DNA from: Moniliella sp. 'wahieum'
Taxonomy: Eukaryota
DNA: 64,000 nt
Assembly (NCBI GenBank): GCA_003971905.1
Contig: RSEE01000012.1
Location: forward strand, 682,001-746,000
Direction: 5' to 3'
The notes beneath the pieces were generated by a model that saw only the letters and a list, made by a program, of their open reading frames with translations, was not told where the DNA came from and made no database searches. This document shows positions 10,790 through 47,110 of the stretch, one piece after another. Position 1 is the first letter of the stretch, and every line of letters begins with the position of its first letter. Both the position numbers and the translations under genes were made by a program.

Positions 10790-11766
10790 CTACTGAGCGG
10801 CTGAGCCCGTCAGCTGATAAGATCACAACGGGTCTCGTCATATGCTAGCAAAGTCGACAGGAGCTGCTCCAGAAGCTGGACGCTGCCGATGGTCGCCATG
10901 TGGTTGAGCACAGCAACCCGCTGAGCCACAACTGGCTCTCCGCCATTCCGTCCGTCCCGTACCTCAAGCTCTCCGACCAGCAGGTCCAGGTCGGTCTCCA
11001 GCTCCGCACGCTGTGCCGCACCACGCGCAGCATGTGCAAGTGCGGGGTCATGTCCTCGCTGGAGCACATCATGTCTTGCACCCGCTCCCAGGCCAAGTTT
11101 GGTGCGTTGCATGACGCAGTGCGGGAGCCCATTCTCCAGCTCCTACGCTCCATCCCCGACACCCATGTCCGCAACGAACCTATGGTGGAGGACGAGGATG
11201 GGAGAAGACAGAGGACGCAGCGCACCGACTATACCGCGTAATGGGGCCCGGAGCACTCGGAGGATCAGGAATGGAGGTAGACCACACGCTGCGCGACACG
11301 GGATCACTGGCGCGCAGAGCGCGTTCCGGAGGGTGGTGCATGAGAGCACCGCAACCCCCTTGGAACGCCGGGAGAAGGAGCTGCTTCGGATGCTTGAACA
11401 AGCAGAATGCGACAAGAACGCCAAGTACCAGGGACGCACTCAAGAGCCTTTTTCCCCCTGGTTTTGACGACGCGAGGGTACTACGGCACCAAGACGGCAG
11501 GCAAGGTGTTCGCGCATTGGAAGGAGTTGGCTACTAAGTCTCAGTGGAAATGGTTCCTCGCTCGGATGTCAACCACGTTCCTCCTGTCCACACGCGCTTC
11601 CTAGGGTACGGGACCGGATGGTGTGAGCCGGAGGGTCCGGATATCCTGGCGATCCCCCTGGTCCCTTGACCCTGGTGGCGCCCCCAAGTAACCCCCGCAA
11701 GATGAACGGTTAGGTTTAGACGTAGCGTTCCCCTTGTCCCAGCCTTAAGCTCTGTCAATGAAATGG
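10790..11766 (+). mobile_element. 5'-truncated CRE-clade (Cnl1-like) non-LTR retrotransposon fragment: Zn-knuckle, restriction-like endonuclease and 3' end
   Basis: WLSAIP..PYLKLSDQQVQVGLQLR; CKCG...EHIMSC (CCHC); LHDAV (RHD-like); NEP; RTD...EVD; DKNAKY; PF.P...TTRG. Contains stops and frameshifts. Homologous to 39525-40011. Confidence 0.8.
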
Positions 11767-12129: not shown

Positions 12130-12678
12130 CCCTGAGGCCTGACACCGTTCTTTCTCTATTGCGTTATTGTTTCCCTTGTAGTCCCTTGTCTGTAAGCTAT
12201 GGTTCGTGGGTTTCTCTCACGGTCCATTGGCGCCTTCCCCTCCTGTTCTCCTAAATTGATCATCCCAACAGTACAGGCAATTTATCTTCTCCTTAGTTGC
12301 TCCCCGCTCCTCGACCTCGCCCCCCAGACCACGTATCCCGCTCTCAGCTTCTCAACCAGCCCAGTCATGCATGTCGTTCTCGCTCCACGTCAAAAAACCA
12401 AGTCCACCCCCACCGTGGGTCCCTTTCAAGCCACGCCGTCTCCAGTCCCACAGCCCAGCTTTTGCTCTGACAGTGTTTGTCCCCCCACTGTCACTACCCG
12501 TGTCCCTGAGCCCCCAAGGCACCAGACACGTTACTACCGCCCAATCCGGTACATCCGCACAGCCTTGCCACATCTGCAGTCGCCTCTACTAGTATAAGCA
12601 GAAAGGTGACTCCGTGTCCCTATACCTCCGCTCGAACACAACACTCAGCAACTCCCCGTGGCGGCGCTGGCCCGTGAC
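12130..12678 (+). mobile_element. Decayed solo copy of the LTR-like unit found at 37399-38245
   Basis: Colinear shared blocks: AATTGAT..CAGTACAGGCA, CGACCTCG, CAGTGTTTGTCC, AGACACGTTACTAC, CAGCCTTGCCACA, CTCCGCTCG, and the terminus GGCGGCGC..GCCCGTGAC. 5' limit uncertain. Confidence 0.7.
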
Positions 12679-14217
12679 GGTTTGAAGACCGGTTATCTGT
12701 TTTTGGTACGGACCCGTATGTGTTGTAACAATCAGTCTGACTGGCATACCGGTACTAAATCATGTCTGAATGATGGCCCTAATTTGATCCATCATGTTTT
12801 CTCTCCCGGGGGGATCACTTAGTTTGAGTATAAGTAAGGAAATAGCGAAGAAACGGGGAAAAGATCAGCTGAGAATATGTATGATAGAGAGCCAGAGAGA
12901 CGATAGAGGAGAAACATCGCGAGCGAGAAGAAAAAATGAAGGTGGCTGTGTGTGTGGAAGGGCGCCTCTAGACATTGGCCCAGGACAAACCCTCCTTCTT
13001 TTGCCACACCATTTTTTGACAAAAAGCCATGGCCTCTGCGGTTGTTCTGAAGCCCGAAGGAAGAGAGAGGGGAATTCAGGCAGCCACCGCACTTAGTTTC
13101 ACACCGTTTTCGACAGTCATCACGAGTTTGGCCCCTCCAATTTTTATTGAACCACTTTCGTTGGTACACAGCCGTCCGCAACGTCGACCGTGAAACCAAC
13201 GATTGAGTGCATAAGTAGCCTGCTAATCGGAATTTCTGGCTCCCAACCTATTGGACCTTGCGGGCCCCGCCGCAAGCTCGCCGTTAGACTTGAGGGGCAC
13301 AATCTTGTCGCAGCCTCGTCAGGACTGCGAGCCACAACCTGCTGAAGCAGATTGTGGCAACGCTGCCCAGCGGGGTTGTTGACAGATTGTGGCCTATAAG
13401 CTTGTCGCAACCAGTTGCCCCCCACATTTTAGTAGTCGCAATCTTGCCCGCCACCCTATTTCGCGACATTGTGAATAGCGACCAGCCTCGTTCCACATGT
13501 TAAAAGGGAAGGTTTGTCCAAGAATCGAACTTGTGGTTTCCCCAGCCGAAAGTACTAGACATAGACCGTTGCACCATAAAAACACAACTACTTTGAGGAG
13601 ATCAATGATTGATCCAATATTCGCATGTCCGTTTCACACGAACAGTCGCCAAAAACTTTGTAGATTGGTGAAGAGTATACATTGGAAGTTGGGCACAACG
13701 TGTCATAAAACATCATTCGTAGCCCATATCTAGAACCGTCTACTGTTAGAGGGTACTGCTAGGGTTCTCCTGCGCGGCCCTCAATGGATCGGTGACGCTC
13801 GCCTAGCCGAACGGAAGCGTTCCGCTCGCAGGCGCGCACGCCCTGCTCGCTCCATCCCTTCTCTCTCTCCTTTCTCCTTCCCTTCAGACGTTGCTTGAAG
13901 TTGTGGCTCACCACTTTGCCTTCACACCTTGTCTGAAGGCTGCTTTGCAGCTGATCCATAGGATCGCGAGTGCTCCCAAGTCGCACTCTAATCTACAGGT
14001 TCGTTGCTTGTTTATACTGCCCGCACAAGAGAGGGGATGGTCTGTACACTGCTGGTACCAAAATGGCCATATGTCAGCCGTCTCTCATTCGTTCTGGCTC
14101 AAATTTGGCACGTTGCCAGCGGTAAGCATATGCACTGCAGCGCGCGTACAGGCGTGCTATAGCACCAAATGAAGCACTGTGGTTTGGCCGACGATGCAGA
14201 CGACCATGCATGGTGAC

Positions 14218-32254: not shown

Positions 32255-33530
32255 TGTCACGGGCGGGCGCCGCTGCCAGGAGGGGCGGCCGGGGAGGGGG
32301 GGGGGGTAAAAGGGGCACAATCCCTTGGAGTGACAGGAGAATGGAGAAACCTCCACCAGCCCAGACAACCGTCCTGGCCGAGGGACAGGATCACCATTCC
32401 CTGTTGGCTTTTTTCATGTCCACCAGCCCCCTCTCGTCATTTTCCCACTTGGTCCCGCTCTATATAGCACATGTCATGCGTCACGTACATATGAGTTTTT
32501 CATGGAAGATGTTAGATAGGAGCTTGATTGGTTGCAGTGGGTAGGGACGAGCGTTCAGATTGCAAGGAAGTCGCGGCTTGTAAGAAGGAGTTTGTGGATC
32601 GAAAAACGAGAGCCATAGAATGTAGTTGGGAAAAGATTGGGAAAGATGTACACAGGACGTCGCATACAAGGAAAACGTATAAAAGGACCGCGATGAGGAG
32701 GCGCACAAAGGAAAAATGAACTACAGAAGTACTGAGAGCACATGAAAGAGATAAAACATGCAGGAGAGGGGAAAGGATATGCTGTTTACACATAATGGCC
32801 ACTGTGACGGGGGTGCTGGCTTTCCAGGCGGAGACTCTACCCATTATCGGAGACAAGACTGACGAAAGACTGAATGCGTTTCAGATCCAAAGTCCAAGGA
32901 GCACTGGCGTGAACGTAGAAGGGTCGCGAGTATAGTAGTTTGTTGGTCGTCAGGAAGAGTCAGGCAACGTCGAAGGAGGTTGCACGCTAGGGGCCGGGCG
33001 AGAAAGCGGGGAGCTACAATGAATGGAGGAGGGCAAGCGAGCCGATCGTAAAGGTGATCCTTTTAGAGTGGTGTGTTTAGAAGAATAGTGAAGGGAAAAG
33101 AAGAACGGTGGACGGCTTGGGTCATTACAATTGGATCCAAAAAACAGAGGCAAGTTTTATGGAAAAGAAGGACGACAAAGGAGACCAGCAGGTCTACAGC
33201 GAAATGGGGAAACGAGTCAAGAGGGAGATGTGAGGACCAATCCCGAGAGGTACGAAGTGAGAAACGAAGCGAGGGTCAAGGGCCAAGCGGGACGAGAAAA
33301 GAGGCGAGAAAAACCAAGTCGAAACCATGTATAGTGTGTTGGAATTTAGACGAGCACGAGCAGAGAAGAGACGATTGTTGTAGGTTTTGTAGATGGGCCC
33401 AGAATCCGAGTCACGATAGCGAAAGAGAGAACTTGAGCAGTGACGGACAGAGAAACCGAGAAGCGAGAGCGACGATAAGGGAGTGTGGATGTGGCTGTGA
33501 AAAAGGCGAATTGATCGTTGCCCCGTGACA
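32255..33530 (-). mobile_element. Solo-LTR-like element (1276 bp), TGTCACGGG...CCCGTGACA, no TSD
   Basis: Perfect 9-bp inverted termini. The first ~75 bp (TGTCACGGGCGGGCGCC...ACAATCCCTT) match the termini at 35432 and 38245. Non-coding. Flanks ATATC / CAGCC do not match. Confidence 0.65.
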
Positions 33531-33619: not shown

Positions 33620-34637
33620 TCAACTGGAGGACGAATCACCGTAGTGGTATTTGACCGGGAGAGAAGAGTGGTTCGGGGTAGAGTACGGGGGTTGATGAGA
33701 GGATTCGCCATAGTCCCCGCTGCTTAAGTCGATGTGGACGTCTTCAGGCTTCTCACCGACTATTGCCACGGTTCGCTCGGACCAGGGAGCAGGGAAGAGA
33801 AAACAAGGATGGGCCAGGAGGAAGACAAGGAGAGCGAAGAAGATCATCGTGGCATCAAATATGGGGAACCAGACCTCGTGCACGGAAAGGTATCCTTTCC
33901 ATCCTTGCCTCATCTCGACGCACCGATACACACAACGGATGAGAATGAAGACTGACGAAACAAAGGAAGCGCAGGCAACGAGGACTGTTCCCTTGGTCCA
34001 GCGCTCGCGGTATTTTCCTGCTTTGGTGGCAAGATAGTGGCGCACGAGGAAATCCGTCAGGAGTATTAAAAGGGCCCCGTAATGAAAATCTGGACAATGA
34101 CCCCGGCCAAGGCAATGTTAGAGCCAGTGTGTACACCCGAGTCAGTGTTGGACGTGGCGCTGATCCCACCACCAGCAGCTTGGATTATGAGCGAGATGAC
34201 ATCCCCGGTGACAAAGACGGAAATGTAGCCTTTGGTACTGACCCGAGTCAGCTCTGGACCAACAAAGAGAATGATGCGCTCCAGAGCAACGTAGTTGGCC
34301 GCGCTGAGAAAGATGGGGCTGATGATCAGGCACACGAGCTGGGCAATGTAGGGATCAGCCTGGAAGAAGTCAAAGTGGCTGTCAAGACGGGCAATCCAAC
34401 CAGCCAGCTCCCCTGCAGCGCAGACTGCGGCCAGCAGCATAAACCCGCCGCGACGGAACCGACGGGGCCAGAGTGCAAACAGGAGATGCAGGAGGAACTG
34501 GAGGCCAAAGAGGACAGTGAAGAGGATGCTGAGCCAGAGGGTGGGGATGTACTGGTACGGCGCATTGTCCAGCTGGCACACTGCCCCCGCGCGGGGTTGA
34601 TGTGGTGACAGTCGTCGACGTCAGAATACGCACCCAT
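33620..34637 (-). CDS. RTA1/RSB1-family 7-TM lipid-translocating exporter
   Basis: YQYIPT..SILF; ELAGWIAR; ISPIFLSAANY; FVTGDVISLIIQAAGG; ILIRCVYRCVE..G..GYL..HE..F..FD; HP. Confidence 0.9.
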
Positions 34638-37023
34638 CGTGGTGTGCAGATCGGGGAAAGGGCGAGCGAGAGAGGGAAGAAGAGAGGGAGGAAAGGGAAA
34701 AGAGAGCCAAGAGAGGCCGGAAAGAAGGCAGAATGCGATGGGGAGAGAGGTCTATCTTTCTTCGCTGGGGGCGTGGTAGATGCGAACAGGCCCGGGGTGA
34801 GAGGACGGACGAAGGTGGATATATATTGGTGGGGAGTAAGAAGTGCTCGGTGTTACAGGGTGGCTCGGGCTTCGGCCATACTTGGGCGCTGCGTGTGCCA
34901 GCGCGGGGCCAGTGTCGAAAACGGGGCCCAGCGCCTGAAGCGGCCTACAGCGGCGGGGGCTTGTGTACGGCGCTGCCTTATACCAGCACAGTACCACTGC
35001 CCGGCTAGGGGGCGTGGCGTGAGCCAGTGGGGGGGGTGTGGCGGGGCGCGGCACGGGGGCGGCGCTGGATGCATCTTGAATTACCACTAGGAGACCACCG
35101 GGCCGCGTGCTGGGCCACTGTTCCGTCGTCCACCATGCCATCGTCCTCCGCTCCACCTTTCCACTGTTCCACGCTGGAGAGATTTTCCCACCCATACGCT
35201 GGCCTGCGGGTGCACTGAACGTGCCATATGTGACAGACCGATGTAAAATGTGCACAATTTTACTAGGGAAGGAGAAAGCGTGGGTGGTTTTTCTTTTTTT
35301 ATATGTTGGTTTAGCGCAGTGTTTCTTTGTCCCACAGCCTTAAAAGCTCTGTCAATCATATGGCTCCAGGATACAGGCAAAGCTTCGCTCTGTTGACAGG
35401 CGAACCCCTTCAACCTCGGTTCGGGCACAGCTGTCACGGGCGGGCGCCGGGGCCCGCCCTGGGGTTTTTGGGGTACAATCCCTTAGGAGACGGAAGGACG
35501 ACTCACGGTAGTTTCGGGCTTGGGCTGGTTGGTGTATCCGAGCGGAGCTAGGGACGAGGAGAGGCCTTTGGTGGGGCGGCTGCACGTGTGGCAAGGCTGC
35601 GTCTGCACCGGCTTGGGCCGTAGTAACGTGTCTGAAGCCTCCGGGACTTAGGGACGGGAGGAGGCAGCGGCGGACAAACACTGCCTTAACTGAGACTGGG
35701 AATCGCCGCGGCCAAAGGAGGGCTCGCGCGATGGGGTTGACGAAGGGCTGGAGGACGAGGTCGGAGGAGAAGTCGGACGCTAACAAGAAGAGCTGCCTGT
35801 ACTGGATCAATTGGCTGGAAACGGGCAGGAGTCGGACAGGATAGGCGGGAAAGGGACGAAGGTGGAGACGAGAGATGACGAGAGTGGGGACATAATGGAA
35901 GGTCCGGGGTTCCCAAGGCAGGTCCTCAAGGTTCGTCGTTATTTTGGGCTGGTCCCTTTTCAAGCCTGCGCAAGTCGTCGGCCCGTTTCCCCATTCCCGT
36001 TTCCCCCTCCCGTTGGGCAGACGTGCCCTCCCCGTTTTTCACCCTCAGTCCTTGAGCGCATCCCCCGTTCGTCGTCCCCGATGCCAAGGCGCTCTTCCCT
36101 TTTCCCGCTTTCTCCCCTCCGTTGCGACGAGGCCCTGGATGGCCCTCCCCAATCGTTGCACCCCCGATGGTTTCCCCGGCTCCCGATGACTCTGAGGCTT
36201 GGCCAGCTTCTTGCCCTCGTTGCCGCTTCAAATTCGATCAGCCTTGAAACTTTATCCTCGGTTCGTTTGTTTTTGTTTCTGGGTCGCGTCCAATAGCGCG
36301 CCCGGATTGGTTGCTTTCCATCACCACCACTCGCGCATCAAGCAGTACCAGTCGGCGTACGATTCAAGACGCTCGCGTTCACCCGGCTGCTCTACCCTCC
36401 AAGTCCCCGCGCGAGGTGATTTTCATTCCCTTCCCCGATGGACGACTCGAGCCTGGCCTGATGGCCAACCGGTTTCGACCCCAGCTCATCGTCTCCAAGT
36501 GAGGTCCAACCCTCGACCACTCAAGACCCTCGGACGCTCGCGACGGTTTTCAACAGCTCAAGGCGAATTTTTTTTTCAGGATCTTCGCCCGTGACGTCAA
36601 TTTCGGTTGCTCTATTCCTTCTTTCTCGATGGTTAACTCCTGTCCCCCCCTCGGAGAGGGAGGAGGCCCAGGAGATGCGCGCGGACGCGCATAAGGAGGA
36701 TGGGGCGTGGGAGCGCCGGTCGCCATAAGGCGAGGCGACGGCTGCAAGCCCAATTACCGTGTTTATCCTACCAAGTAGGCATGTGGGCATGCCTTGTGAA
36801 GGGGAGCGTGATGCGACGGACGAACGCTGGCAGGCAGGCCAGCGGAGCGCGCCGATCCCCTTCTAGTCCACATCAAGCCCTGGTATTCGTGCGAGCGAAC
36901 GTTGGCAGGCGGGCCAGCGGAGCTTGTACTCTCCCCCAAGTCTCAAAGGAGGCGAGCATTAGCCGGCGGGCCAACAGCGCCTCTACCTCTTGGTTTCTCT
37001 GCTCTCAAGATGGCTTTGACTCG

Positions 37024-37158
37024 CACCCCCGATGCTCGAAGGAAGGAGGGGCGTGCGAATGAGAAGAGAGCTTGACACCCCCGACGCTCGAAGGAAGGAG
37101 GGGCGTGGGAGCAAGAGCCTGAACCGCACCCCCGACGCTCGAAGGAAGGAGGGGCGTG
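37024..37158 (+). repeat. Three 32-bp direct repeats CACCCCCGA(C/T)GCTCGAAGGAAGGAGGGGCGTG with 20- and 19-bp spacers
   Basis: Copies at 37024-37055, 37076-37107 and 37127-37158; one mismatch among them. Confidence 0.95.
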
Positions 37159-37398
37159 CCAAGTATCCAAGTACCCAATCCCCGTTCAAAGTTTGGTCGG
37201 CGCGAAAGGAGTTTGACGCCGATCGTATGCCCAAAGACCGAGGGAGCGAAGGGCATACCTCGCGATTGCTTTACCATGGAAAGGAGAGATGTGCGCATGG
37301 GTAAGCGTACACTCCTTCACCCCTCCCCGTTGCTATTAGGAGAGAGGGAAGCCCATCCATGGAAGGCGTGCGGACACGCCTTGTGAAGAGGAGCGTAA

Positions 37399-38245
37399 TG
37401 TCACGGGCTGCGGCGGACACGAGATGGTCCGACCCAAGCTAAGGCCCGCCTGCTCCGCACATGCCCAGTAGAGGTGCTCCGCAGGCCAACCAAGTGTGAT
37501 GATGGTTGGCTAAATCAAGTATCGTGGCCGAAGGGCCATGCTCCGCGCGACAATAGTCGCCCCCCGCCCAAGTCCAAGTCGGCCGGCCTAAATAAGGCCA
37601 CCGAGCTTCCAGTGCCGTGGCGGCATCTGCCGTCCCGTCCCCGTTTCCGTTTCCTTTCTCTGTCGCGCCTGCGGCGACCAACCCCGCTTTTGACATGTTC
37701 CTTTCTACACCCCTCTGTATCCGTTTCCCTTTTGATCCTGCCTGTACCCCTGGTTGATGGGGATCTTTTCCCCCACTTCCATTCTCGTCCCCACTCTCGT
37801 CATCTCGTCTCCACCTTCGTCCCTTTCCCGCCTATCCTGTCCGACTCCTGCCCGTTTCCAGCCAATTGATCCAGTACAGGCAGCTTTCTTGTTAGCGTCC
37901 GACTTCTCCTCCGACCTCGTCCTCCAGCCCTTCGTCAACCCATCGCGCGAGCCCTCCTTTGGCCGCGGCGATTCCCAGTCTCAGTTAAGGCAGTGTTTGT
38001 CCGCCGCTGCCTCCTCCCGTCCCTAAGTCCCGGAGGCTTCAGACACGTTACTACGCCCAAGCCGGTGCAGACGCAGCCTTGCCACACGTGCAGCCGCCCC
38101 ACCAAAGGCCTCTCCTCGTCCCTAGCTCCGCTCGGATACACCAACCAGCCCAAGCCCGAAACTACCGTGAGTCGTCCTTCCGTCTCCTAAGGGATTGTAC
38201 CCCAAAAACCCCAGGGCGGGCCCCTGGCGGCGCCCGCCCGTGACA
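37399..38245 (+). mobile_element. LTR-like unit (847 bp) preceded by a polypurine-tract-like sequence
   Basis: Starts TGTCACGGGC, ends GCCCGTGACA, directly preceded by GAAGAGGAGCGTAA (37385-37398). A diverged dispersed copy lies at about 12130-12678. Confidence 0.7.
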
Positions 38246-41200
38246 ACAGCCTTTGGCAACACCACAGGCCCTCGAATGCGACCGCTTTTCTCATATAGAC
38301 TTCCTCTTCTCCGCTGCCCTCTCACCAAAAGAGCATTTACCAGGGCACTGCTATGGACCGTGTGCTCCTATTAGCCTCCCGCCTTTTACCCCCCTGGAGA
38401 AGGCAACGGAAGGTATCTGCCCCATCGCCTGTAGGGAGGTGATGTACCGTCTGGTGGGCGCCAAAAGCATCGCTCGAGCGATATGCTCCCCACGGCTGGC
38501 TGCTTCCCACTCATCTGGGAGTAGCATCGCAAAACGGAGGCGGGCCTATCGTGCATATAGTCGAGCGCATGATGGCGACATCATGCGGGGAGAATGACGG
38601 GGAACTGGGCGATTTCAACCCCGTCGCCATGCTCGAATTTACTAACGCTCTTAACAAGGTGCGCCGTCGCACACTCTGCAGTGGCCAAAACATAACCATT
38701 TTGGCCCCATCTTCTTTCTTTGGCCGGTGGATTTATGGTGCCCCCACCCAGCTTTGGGGTCGCGCCGTACGGGAATGAGACGGGCGCTTTGTCGGCAGAG
38801 GGGCGTCCGGCAGGGCCATCCCCTCACCCCTTTTTCTTATCCATTGCAGTGCGGCCGGCCCGCGACGTGGACGTTGCAAAAGGAGCTGCCGCCGGGACAC
38901 CTTGTGATGGCGTACTTGGATGACATTACGATTTTCGGACAAGAACCAGGCAATACCGGCCGAGCTGCTGAGCTGCGGAGATTTTGGAAGACGATACCTC
39001 AGGTTTCGCACTCAACCTGCGCAAGTGCGTCGAGCGGGACCGGGACCAGATTCGGGAGGATGGACTGGAGGTCCTCTGTCCTGGGTACTTGTGCGGGAGG
39101 GAGGGATTGTCGCGATCGTGGCTCTGTGACCAACTGGCCAACATGAGGCAGGACATGCCCAAGTTTGATGACATCTCTCCGTCAGGGACGCCTCATACTA
39201 TGGCGGTACAATACTCAGACCAAGCCCCCCGCCGCCTGCTCCATCCACCATGGAGATCAAGGGTGAGCTGGACGATGTGCTGCCGAAATTGATGACTTCG
39301 TCTCTGCAAGGGGTTCGGACGGATCCGGGGCGATGAGGATCCCAAGGTTCAAAGGACGATCACTTCGACATGCTCTCATGAGCTTGCCTCTCAGGATGGG
39401 AGGATGCGGTAGTCCGCTTTACTCATATATTGCGCCCCACACGCTTGTGCTGCGGCCAAGGAGGTCAACGACTATCTTATTACCATGTTGACCGATCGGA
39501 AGCGCGCATGCCAAAGGCGAACGCATTTGCGAAGCAACGCCAGCGCTGAACGAGCCGACTGTGGAGGAGGAGGATGGGACGAGGCTTGGGAGGAAGGCAG
39601 TACATGAGAGAACCGCGACGCCTTTGGAACTCCGGCAGAGAATCAGCTGGTTCGGTGAAGCAAAACGCGACAAGAACGCCAACTTACTGCCTGGGGCGCA
39701 CCAAGAGCCGTTTCCCCCTTGTTTTGACGAGGCGAAGATAATTCGATAATATATGCCACCAAGACGGGGTGGGCCAGATGCTTGGGAACTGGGAGGAACA
39801 AACACTGAGTCTCAATGGAGATGGTTCACTGCTCGGATGTCAACCACGTTCATTTGTATACACACGCGTTTCTTCGGGATGGGAATGGATGGCGGGCACA
39901 AGAAAGATTTGGCGCCAACGAGCAACACACGCCGTCGGATGATCGATAAACGTGATGAACAGGCTTAGGTGCAGCGTTTTTGTCCCAAGCTTAAGCTCTG
40001 TCAATGAATGGTTACAGTATAGAGACCCTACAATCTCCTCCATAATGGTCTGTTCTGTTGGATCTGATCTCACAACGGTGTGGGATTTGCTCTCGCAAAG
40101 ATGTGAATCTTGCAAATTGATGTCGAAAGAGCAGTGTTGAGCCACATCGGGTGGCTCGTACTTTAGCCAACGTCCCTTCAGTTCCTCCTCAGGCCTAGGA
40201 GTTTGTTTTCTCTCTCCTGTTTTCCTTGGTTCCGCAGCTTAGCCCTTGGTGGCGCCTCGCTGTCACTTGATATGTTTCTCGTAGGCGTTGCTGGTTGGCT
40301 TAGCCCCACCAGTGCAATGCATCACCCTCGAGGACCATCCGGACAATAGGTCCCATCAAGCAGGCTGTGTATGTGTGGCGTAGACTGTTCTATGAAGCGA
40401 CATTCTCCTCTCTAACAGGCCTCAGGATGGACAATAGGAAGCAGAAAAGAGATTGGGCGCAAGTACCCCCAGGACGGAAGTACAAAAGAAGGTTGAACGC
40501 TGAACGTTGACTAGGTGATTAGGTGCCCGGGCGATCGGGTGACTGACTGGGGGGTGCTCAGCCAGCCCAACCGCACACACATGCTCACAAGCCTCAGCTG
40601 ATGCATCTTCACATATGCCTGATGCTACCGTGCTGCGCCTTGCTGCGCCGGCGTGGTTGCTCGTGATGGTGGTAGTGAAGCGCAAAAAGGCGTGACCTTG
40701 TTCCAACAACACCGAAGCGAGTCGCCGGTCCAGGCCCGCCAGGCCTGACCAACTCGGTGGTTCAGGGGCTTGAAACGGGCCGAGGCGGAGACTTGCAGGG
40801 ACTTGCAGGCTGCCCTTCAAGGGAAGCTGTCACATGCGTGCGAAGCTCATTAAGCTCATGGAGGTAGAAGGATGGTGAACCCTATGATGGAGCCTGTGGC
40901 GCTGGGGTGCCAGCGCCAAGTGTTTGCCGCCAGTTGCACCGAACCACCCGTACGTCATGTGACGGTCACATCTCTCGACAGTGGCATGATGATGAGGTCA
41001 GGCCTCACATGCACACGTGGGATATGATGGGTGAGATCTGAGAGAAACTGGGAGCATATGATGGGTGATGCCATGCATGGTGGCTGATGCAGATGGGCGA
41101 CGGCGCGTGGGCAAAGGGCAAAACAGATGGCTGGTACATGGCTGGCACAAACCTGGGGGACAGTCCACACTGGGTGGCTCGGCGGCAGCCGGTAAAAAAT

Positions 41201-45470: not shown

Positions 45471-47110
45471 ATGTTGGGTAAACGACCCCAAGCCCAGCGC
45501 GTCAGCAAGCCTGTCGCGCGCTACCGCCCCGGAAAGGTGCCCCATCTACCGCCTGGGGCCGACACGTACGGCTCGGACGAGAGCAGCGACGAGCCAGCCG
45601 AGGCTGCGGTGCCCGCGCCAGCGGCCCCGAGTCCGTCCCGCGCCGCGCCACCTCCGGCGTCGGATGAAGGATCGTCTGAATACGGTACGTTGTGCCCTTC
45701 CCAACCGCTTTGTGCCCCGCTTTAGCCCAAGCCAAGGCCGCCCGCTGACTCCCTGCCCCCTCGCCCCGCCGCCGCCGTGCTTTTTCTGCGATGACAGAGA
45801 CGGATACCGAGGACGAGCAACCCGAACCGTTCCGGCCTGTCTTTCGTGGTGCGGCGACTAGTCAGCCTAGTGCGCGCGTTGTTTCCCAACCCCCGGTCCC
45901 GCTGCCTCCACGACTATCCCGGCCGCTCGTCGTCAGAGTACGACTCGGAGAGCGATGAGAGCGAGAGAGTGAAGCCGACTCGGCCCCCGCACCGCCTGCT
46001 CCGATCTTCCGTCCCAGTTTCGTGACCAAGGCCCAGCGCAAGACGTTGGACGAGCAGGGGGAGGCCGAGAGCGAAGCGGCGATCGAGGCCAAAGCCGAGG
46101 CTGAGCGGGCCAAACGGAAACAAGCGCATGACCTGGCCGCGCACACCATCAAAGCGGGCCTGTTGGAGGCTGAGGCCGCCGAGGCGGCCCAGCGACCCGA
46201 TTTGAGCGATACCGATGGCCGTGATCCCGACGCCGAGTTTCAAGCATGGCGGGAGCGCGAGCTGCGGCGTCTGGCGCGCGCGCGAGGCGGACGAAGCGCA
46301 AGCCGAGCATCAAGCCGAGCTGGCTCGCCGGGCGGCCCTATCCCAGGCAGAACGGGATGCGGAGGATGAGGCACATGCACGCCAAACGCGCAAGGACAAG
46401 ATGGCTTCCCGTGGTGCAGTGGGCTTTATGCAAAAGTATCATCACAAGGGTGCCTTTTTCCAAGACATGGACTTGCCTCACCGAGACTACACTGGGCCCA
46501 CCGAGAACCAGATTAACAAGAGCTTGCTACCAAAGATGATGCAGGTACGGGACTTTGGGCGCAAGGGGCGCTCCAAGTGGACACACCTTGCCGCGGAGGA
46601 TACCAGCCGGCCGGACGAACGGTCTGCTCCGTCTCGCAGGCGGGGAGGCGGGGGTGGATGGGAAGGCGACCCACAACGCACCCAACCACCGGCTTCTACA
46701 GGCGCCAACTCCTTCTCTCAACGTCCTACACGCACCTGGGGGGCTCCAAGTACCTCTGCCTCCCATTCCGCGCCCACCCCTACCTCGGCCCCCTCGGCCT
46801 CGGCGCCAACCGACCCACCTAAGCCCAAGAAACCGCCAGGGAACCGGCTGCGAATGAAGGTGGATGACCGGCCGCGTCGCAAGGCGGGTGAATACGTCGT
46901 GGAACATGATGAGGATGAGCGCCAGCCCTCTCGGTTGGACCGGGAGAAGCCCCTGGACTATGGCGCGTCCGGCATGGGGCCCAGACGGGGAGCGATGGAG
47001 GAGCGACGTGGAATGACCGTCGCTCCACGCGCGCTGGGACGTGGACGCAGGGGGGGATGCGGGCGAGCCCAAACGGCGGCGCATCTCGTATGGAGACGCA
47101 GAGGCCTAAC
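45471..47110 (+). CDS. MFAP1: Microfibrillar-associated protein 1-like spliceosomal B-complex protein
   Basis: RYRPGK; FRPSFVTKAQRKT; DTDG.DP.AEFQAWRERELRRL; FMQKYHHKGAFFQD; RDYTGPT; LLPKMMQVRDFGRKGRSKWTHL..EDT. Intron about 45685-45797; stop uncertain. Confidence 0.9.

Follow-up and report, generated by a model that had tools for sequence, protein, structure and literature searches.

We analyzed a 64,000-nucleotide stretch of genomic DNA from Moniliella sp. 'wahieum' (GenBank assembly GCA_003971905.1, contig RSEE01000012.1, positions 682,001 to 746,000 of the forward strand), which is called the window below and to which all coordinates refer. The subject is a non-coding insert of 2814 bp at 35432-38245, which has long inverted arms, is flanked by a direct 5-bp target site duplication (TSD), and interrupts what appears to be the remnant of an element bearing a reverse transcriptase (RT). 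The right part of the insert looks like the 3' end of a long terminal repeat (LTR) retrotransposon, and its left arm is an inverted copy of the last part of the same LTR-like unit. Our tentative preference is for a single integrase-mediated insertion of an aberrant LTR-retrotransposon cDNA with the U5 end at both tips, which would have been dead on arrival. The features at the locus are as follows.

35427-35431, no strand assigned: left copy of the TSD, ACAGC, read directly.
35432-35891, minus strand: left arm, an inverted copy of the final ~460 bp of the LTR-like unit, with TGTCACGGGC as its outer end.
35892-35901, no strand assigned: junction of arm and interior, with ATAATGGAAG here against GAGAATGGAAG in the reverse-complemented LTR.
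35902-37363, plus strand: non-coding interior, not detectably similar to the LTR, whether compared directly or in reverse.
36777-36819, plus strand: first copy of a module made of a short hairpin, a purine-rich tract, and a TG start, 81% identical to 37364-37406 (E value, 1.3e-5).
37022-37159, plus strand: 51-bp tandem repeat, 2.7 copies.
37364-37398, plus strand: short hairpin and purine-rich run resembling a polypurine tract, adjoining the LTR-like unit, read directly.
37399-38245, plus strand: LTR-like unit of 847 bp, bounded by TGTCACGGGC and GCCCGTGACA.
37787-38245, plus strand: right arm, the last ~459 bp of the 847-bp LTR-like unit.
38246-38250, no strand assigned: right copy of the TSD, ACAGC, read directly.
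38251-40010, plus strand: element that received the insertion, RT-bearing (non-LTR-like), decayed, and truncated at its 5' end, with its upstream part at about 35294-35431.

The borders of the insert are sharp. The left tip reads TGTCAC and the right tip GTGACA, and the direct repeat outside them is exactly 5 bp long and non-palindromic, a match expected by chance at fixed positions about once in 1024. The inverted repeat does not continue beyond the tips, as 35431 is C and 38246 is A. A plus-strand frame beginning at 35002 is open from about 35294 and, without the insert and one ACAGC, runs into the frame beginning at 38247; the continuity over this empty site was judged by eye, and the sequences were not joined. 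Because the TSD is exact and non-palindromic and the host frame runs across the empty site, the insert entered as one unit in a single event. An earlier note on this DNA, made from the letters alone, had described the same tips and duplication and had concluded that the element integrated as a single unit, and we agree on both points. LTR retrotransposons leave TSDs of 4-6 bp, a range that includes the 5 bp found here. Given the non-palindromic 5-bp duplication, the TG..CA tips, and the closing host frame, single-step insertion by a DDE integrase would be the simplest reading.

The two arms are nearly identical. BLAST aligned them with 97.7% identity over 475 columns, and a column count over the first 464 columns gave 455 identical positions, no substitutions, and 9 gap columns arising from 5 indel events. 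Four of the five indels sit in a homopolymer or short repeat. Since two conserved genes of the window, MFAP1 and RTA1, are frameshifted at simple repeats, the arm indels may be assembly errors, and the true arms may be identical. The near-identity claimed by the earlier note therefore stands, with the length of the arms corrected from ~470 to ~460 bp. The lack of substitutions between the arms indicates that the origin of the insert and its insertion are recent and may be one event, in keeping with the earlier assessment of a probably recent insertion. The outermost 30 nucleotides (nt) of each arm (35438-35459 and 38211-38239) contain a G+C-rich stem (GGGCGGGC and GCCCGCCC) followed by a run of T or A, and a 4-bp indel between the arms falls in the loop of this stem.

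The indels also bear on the possibility that the structure is an assembly artefact, made by a long read that folded back or was chimeric. In its favor, the frameshifts in MFAP1 and RTA1 look like indel errors of the assembly, and all five differences between the arms are indels. Such an artefact, however, would leave unexplained the unique flanks on both sides, the exact 5-bp duplication, the TG..CA tips, the 1.9 kb of unique sequence between the arms, and the closing of the host frame over the empty site, and we consider it highly improbable.

The evidence supports reading the host as a decayed RT-bearing element. Its frame leads, with frameshifts, to a YLDD motif. Pfam returned a weak match to RVT_1 (E value, 0.0018; 18.5 bits, below the cut-off of 29.6), and a language-model look-up (Atlas) with the host protein also pointed to a reverse transcriptase, with a score of 0.94. 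No homologues of the host RT were found in a word-indexed search, which covered longer proteins only, or in a HMMER search of 1.84 billion representatives, and no endonuclease domain was found in the host. The earlier claim that the insertion splits the RT frame of a CRE element thus holds for the split RT-like frame, which is continuous over the empty site and has the weak RVT_1 match; the name CRE, a clade that we take to combine an RT with a restriction-like endonuclease, was not confirmed by any analysis. A second partial copy of the host, at 11161-11766, covers only its 3' part and so provides no paralogous empty site. At the 3' ends of both copies of the RT element (39954-40008 and 11701-11766) there is a motif of ~55 nt with the core GTCCCAGCCTTAAGCTCTGTCAAT, and the same motif is found at 35308-35363, immediately before the truncated copy into which the insert went. 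Its position there may reflect a head-to-tail insertion or a preferred target of the RT element.

The right part of the insert has the appearance of an LTR. The 847-bp unit has TG...CA ends and 10-bp terminal inverted repeats, formed by TGTCACGGGC at 37399 and its complement at 38236-38245. Exact copies of this 10-mer occur four times in the window, on the plus strand at 35432, 37399, and 32255 and on the minus strand at 38236-38245; allowing up to 1 mismatch, there are 10 matches, the 4 exact ones included, versus 6.1 in shuffled sequences. The tract directly upstream of 37399, GTGAAGAGGAGCGTAA, has purines at 13 of its 16 positions and is not a clean purine run. Together with the short hairpin, this tract and the 847-bp unit look like the layout of a 3' LTR preceded by a polypurine tract (PPT), so that the earlier description of the right arm as the 3' part of an 847-bp LTR-like unit is upheld, while the PPT named there would be this moderately purine-rich tract. 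When the LTR start is compared with the LTR end in reverse complement, agreement is limited to the first 10 nt. From position 11 on, the left tip of the insert follows the 3' end of the LTR, which makes both tips of the insert the same LTR end.

No direct copy of the 847-bp unit was found inside the insert by global alignment, nhmmer, or repeat comparison, and the only long repeat pair is the inverted one. We also considered the ~1.5 kb at 35902-37398 as a diverged 5' LTR, which was rejected: global alignment gave z scores of 0.78 in direct and -0.6 in reverse orientation, and nhmmer gave nothing. The insert thus has no 5' LTR, and the sequence following a weak inner match to the terminus (36597 onward) does not begin with TGG. 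ARAGORN found no tRNA genes in the whole window, hence none to compare with a primer-binding site (PBS). The unique sequence separating the arms amounts to ~1.9 kb. The two copies of the hairpin/purine/TG module lie 587 bp apart within the insert, and the upstream one (36777-36819) may be what remains of an older LTR boundary or else a central polypurine tract.

The insert is non-coding. Among the 50 open reading frames (ORFs) that overlap it, 10 of at least 110 amino acids and 40 of 45-109 amino acids, none matched Pfam at an E value of 0.01 or better, in agreement with the earlier statement that there is no credible ORF; the one ORF that reached an E value of 0.072 was treated as noise. No tyrosine recombinase (YR), RT, or gag/pol domains were found among these ORFs with Pfam, and Rfam gave no matches in 34500-39500. 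The ORFs across the junction of arm and interior and across the edge between the LTR 5' part and the arm had no matches among predicted proteins. Searches with arm motifs in metagenome, prokaryote genome, and viral contig collections gave no matches, and these collections are poor in fungal DNA, so that the blanks say little.

At the inner edge of the arm, perfect identity ends at GGGGAC and is followed by an imperfect 8-nt match (AATGGAAG). Taken together, GGGGAC and the pair ATAATGGAAG/GAGAATGGAAG form an imperfect microhomology of ~17 nt, with about 14 of the 17 nt matching. This microhomology is more in keeping with a recent template switch than with a long-established arrangement of terminal inverted repeats (TIRs), and together with the lack of substitutions between the arms it fits a fresh event. 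An initiator-like CCACTTC was seen by eye at the same edge and is too weak to use.

A template switch need not have happened during reverse transcription. An ordinary non-autonomous LTR element with direct LTRs and the ACAGC TSD could have been rearranged later at the DNA level by two template switches. In exchange for the 5' LTR, the PBS, and some of the interior, these would have brought in the LTR 3' part in inverted orientation. Switches of this kind during replication or repair are known as microhomology-mediated break-induced replication (MMBIR) or fork stalling and template switching (FoSTeS). The first would have taken place at TGTCACGGGC, the 10 nt with which both the LTR and its reverse complement begin, and the second at the GGGGAC..AATGGAAG microhomology. 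Both junctions do lie on microhomology, perfect over 10 nt at the outer one and about 14 of 17 nt at the inner one, the resulting sequence would be the one observed, and the TSD would be retained. Two switches are needed, however, one of them within a 10-nt stretch at the very tip of the element; there is no detectable remnant of a direct 5' LTR, and the lack of arm substitutions would demand that the rearrangement be recent as well. We regard this course of events as possible but on the whole unlikely.

The same two junctions could also have arisen from two near-identical LTR elements nested in opposite orientation, if two later deletions at microhomologies had cut them down to the present form. 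One such deletion, with the TSD preserved, could have used the 10 nt that an LTR start shares directly with the outer end of an inverted LTR, and there is microhomology at the inner junction. This would take three events, including a deletion ending exactly at the tip of the element, and no remnant of the second interior or of other LTR parts was found, which makes nesting very unlikely.

The earlier note had placed a second, inner terminus at 36587-36595. The string GCCCGTGAC is present there, and extended to 36596 (GCCCGTGACG) it matches the terminus at 9 of 10 positions, but it deserves little weight: about 0.09 such matches are expected by chance on that strand in the interior, or roughly one per eleven such interiors. 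The string at 36587-36599 reads as the right tip (GCCCGTGAC) followed by 4 nt of the left tip (GTCA). Along with the inverted terminal repeats, this is the evidence that can be brought forward for a non-autonomous DIRS-like (tyrosine-recombinase) retroelement. To our knowledge, DIRS elements make no staggered-cut duplication of the integrase type, whereas the insert has TG..CA ends and a 5-bp direct duplication, and neither a YR nor an RT was found in it. According to the DIRS-1 source, which also mentions a shared trinucleotide, DIRS-1 has inverted long terminal repeats that are not identical and an essential internal complementary region in which both outer ends recur side by side (PMC7192593). 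The insert has identical arms and, in place of such a region, just 9 + 4 nt. A DIRS-like origin is therefore given almost no credence.

Outside the insert, the window holds two diverged relatives of the LTR-like unit.

12341-12679, plus strand: diverged relative of the LTR 3' part, ending in GGCCCGTGACG (nhmmer E value, 1.8e-15).
32255-32330, minus strand: diverged relative of the LTR 3' end, oriented like the left arm (z score, 4.8).

The first matches LTR positions 457-752, with 78% identity over 114 nt. It possibly begins at about 11836 (TGGTCAC), where the flanks AAACC and GGTTT are reverse complements of each other and not a direct TSD; with the boundary uncertain, these flanks may be a coincidence and are too weak to use. 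In the second, identity with the terminus extends over the first 18-19 nt, and a conserved block lies ~50 nt further in; it also has a run of about 11 G and is located ~1.3 kb downstream of the RTA1 3' end. Because these two diverged fragments carry the same repeat or terminus, LTR-like repeats with this terminus are resident in the genome. Neither fragment has an inverted partner in the window, nor does the window contain a second inverted layout.

Another reading makes the insert a non-autonomous member of a real TIR family that moves as DNA, by means of an integrase-like DDE transposase (Ginger-like) or of an LTR-element integrase working on two LTR ends in inverted orientation. As described in PMC2836005, Ginger1, Ginger2, and TDD elements have TIRs starting with TGTNR, short TSDs, and termini that resemble Gypsy LTR ends, and their TIRs were proposed to have come from two oppositely oriented LTRs. 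The insert begins with TGTCA at both tips and matches the proposed layout of opposed LTRs, and the two further fragments with the same terminus in the window also agree with a family. In the same source, the TSD is 4 bp at CCGG/CCGT for Ginger1 and 4 bp at the AT-rich RTATAY for Ginger2, with 5 bp in TDD-4 and TDD-5. The 5 bp of the insert thus fit TDD-4 and TDD-5 only, and its target, ACAGC, fits neither preference. The arms, at ~460 bp, are much longer than the TIRs given there for Ginger1 (40-270 bp) and Ginger2 (50-180 bp), and the right arm is visibly part of a longer LTR-like unit, which has its own TG start and purine tract. Moreover, no transposase or integrase was found in the insert or the window, the relatives in the window have no inverted partners, and the perfect arms and the junction microhomology indicate a fresh event. 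We consider membership in a TIR family unlikely.

We think it rather doubtful that the insert represents an undescribed family in which an LTR end has turned into a TIR and is moved as DNA by an integrase, a living intermediate between LTR retrotransposons and Ginger of the sort that Bao et al. put forward to explain how Ginger TIRs arose. Should this be the case, the 460-bp hairpin might also trigger silencing of the parent LTR family. The earlier note had left the choice between a new family and a one-off cDNA; the one-off is favored here, and the family is without support in the window, where the two relatives stand singly.

For the tentatively favored insertion of an aberrant cDNA, the following course can be proposed. 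The parent would be a non-autonomous LTR element undergoing reverse transcription, and its growing minus-strand DNA would first copy U5-R-U3, the polypurine tract, and the ~1.5-kb interior. The 3' end of the minus strand would then find a partner in minus-strand DNA of the strong-stop type, annealing to the 3' part of that DNA by a short, imperfectly matching stretch (GGGGAC..AATGGAAG). The partner would be either the 5' region of the growing strand itself or the corresponding DNA from a co-packaged RNA. Extension of both strands would give a blunt double-stranded DNA with the order [rc(R'-U5)]-interior-PPT-[U3-R-U5], where rc denotes the reverse complement. An LTR-type (DDE) integrase could use the two tips as a pair, since both carry the same ...GCCCGTGACA end, and would insert the molecule once, creating the 5-bp duplication of ACAGC. 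The strand sense of the insert is mixed: in its top strand, the left arm reads like minus-strand DNA that starts at the U5 tip, and the remaining top strand has the plus sense. This is the outcome expected if the 3' end of the minus strand pairs with the 3' part of minus-strand R-U5 DNA, whether its own or derived from the co-packaged RNA, and both are extended.

Precedents for two of these steps come from test-tube work. According to PMC6088434, the minus-strand strong-stop DNA of retroviruses is able to fold back, and its extension yields dead-end products; the nascent minus strand there primes on minus-strand R-U5 and gives an inverted R-U5, as is proposed for the insert. Those products were formed in vitro with a tiny loop and remained dead ends, whereas the insert has a 1.9-kb loop and is integrated in a chromosome. 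The Ty1 integrase performed efficient concerted integration in vitro with donors imitating only the U5 end and showed low sequence specificity (PMC8487063).

We infer the cDNA route, the action of an integrase, and every functional consequence from sequence features. The insert should be unable to retrotranspose again, because it has no 5' LTR promoter and no primer-binding site. Read-through transcription, if it occurs, would yield a long hairpin RNA by pairing of the 460-bp arms. A likeness may be drawn to Mu killer of maize, which we take to be a natural inverted duplication of part of a transposon with a possible hairpin RNA against its own family. Mu killer, however, was derived from a DNA transposon by rearrangement.

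Several points weigh against an aberrant cDNA as the source. There is a single copy at hand, and a parent with direct LTRs, a PBS, and the same interior is not seen in the window, where Pfam also detected no gag/pol relative. The LTR interpretation rests on one internal 10-mer and a moderately purine-rich tract (13 of 16). That the arm corresponds to R-U5 is a guess. The similarity of 12341-12679 to the LTR is significant with nhmmer only within the part that forms the arm, and its collinearity with the LTR upstream, beyond the arm edge, is weak (z score, 2.3). The very same sequence is expected if an element inserted normally and then underwent a template switch at the DNA level. The completion of the second strand of such a molecule has no explanation from the present data.

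Among known elements, the insert can be compared with non-autonomous LTR retrotransposons of the TRIM and LARD types. It shares with them the TG..CA ends, the 5-bp TSD, the non-coding interior, and related solo fragments nearby, and its LTR-like unit likewise bears short terminal inverted repeats and is preceded by a purine tract. It differs on the left, where the repeat is inverted and covers about 460 of 847 bp in place of a direct full LTR, and in that it has no 5' LTR or recognizable PBS.

If the aberrant-cDNA reading is true, the insert would be a natural chromosomal record of an LTR-element integrase pairing two U5 ends; the evidence cited here for such same-end pairing comes only from test-tube assays (PMC8487063). 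An error of fold-back reverse transcription that is described as a dead end in vitro (PMC6088434) would nevertheless have been integrated. The insert would also exemplify a one-step route from an LTR to a terminal inverted repeat, the step proposed for the origin of Ginger transposons (PMC2836005). In the full-text literature, with subscription journals outside the coverage and absence therefore unproven, no integrase-type element with inverted LTRs and a TSD was found described, and the papers found on inverted LTRs dealt only with DIRS and lentiviral vectors. As a one-off, the insert would be a specialist's curiosity; if a family exists, the mobile element would be of a new kind.

The window as a whole is gene-rich fungal DNA with 58% G+C. 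Ordinary genes recognized by Pfam include RTA1, GH18, MFAP1, OPT, mitochondrial carrier, CRAL/TRIO, and Iml2. Two of them change frame where an intron would not fit: MFAP1 near 46275-46286, within a (GC)n run, and RTA1 at about 34069-34075, in a GGGGCCCTTTT patch. The assembly probably carries indel errors of the long-read type, which would explain frameshifts in other genes of the window as well. The insert lies ~0.8 kb upstream of RTA1.

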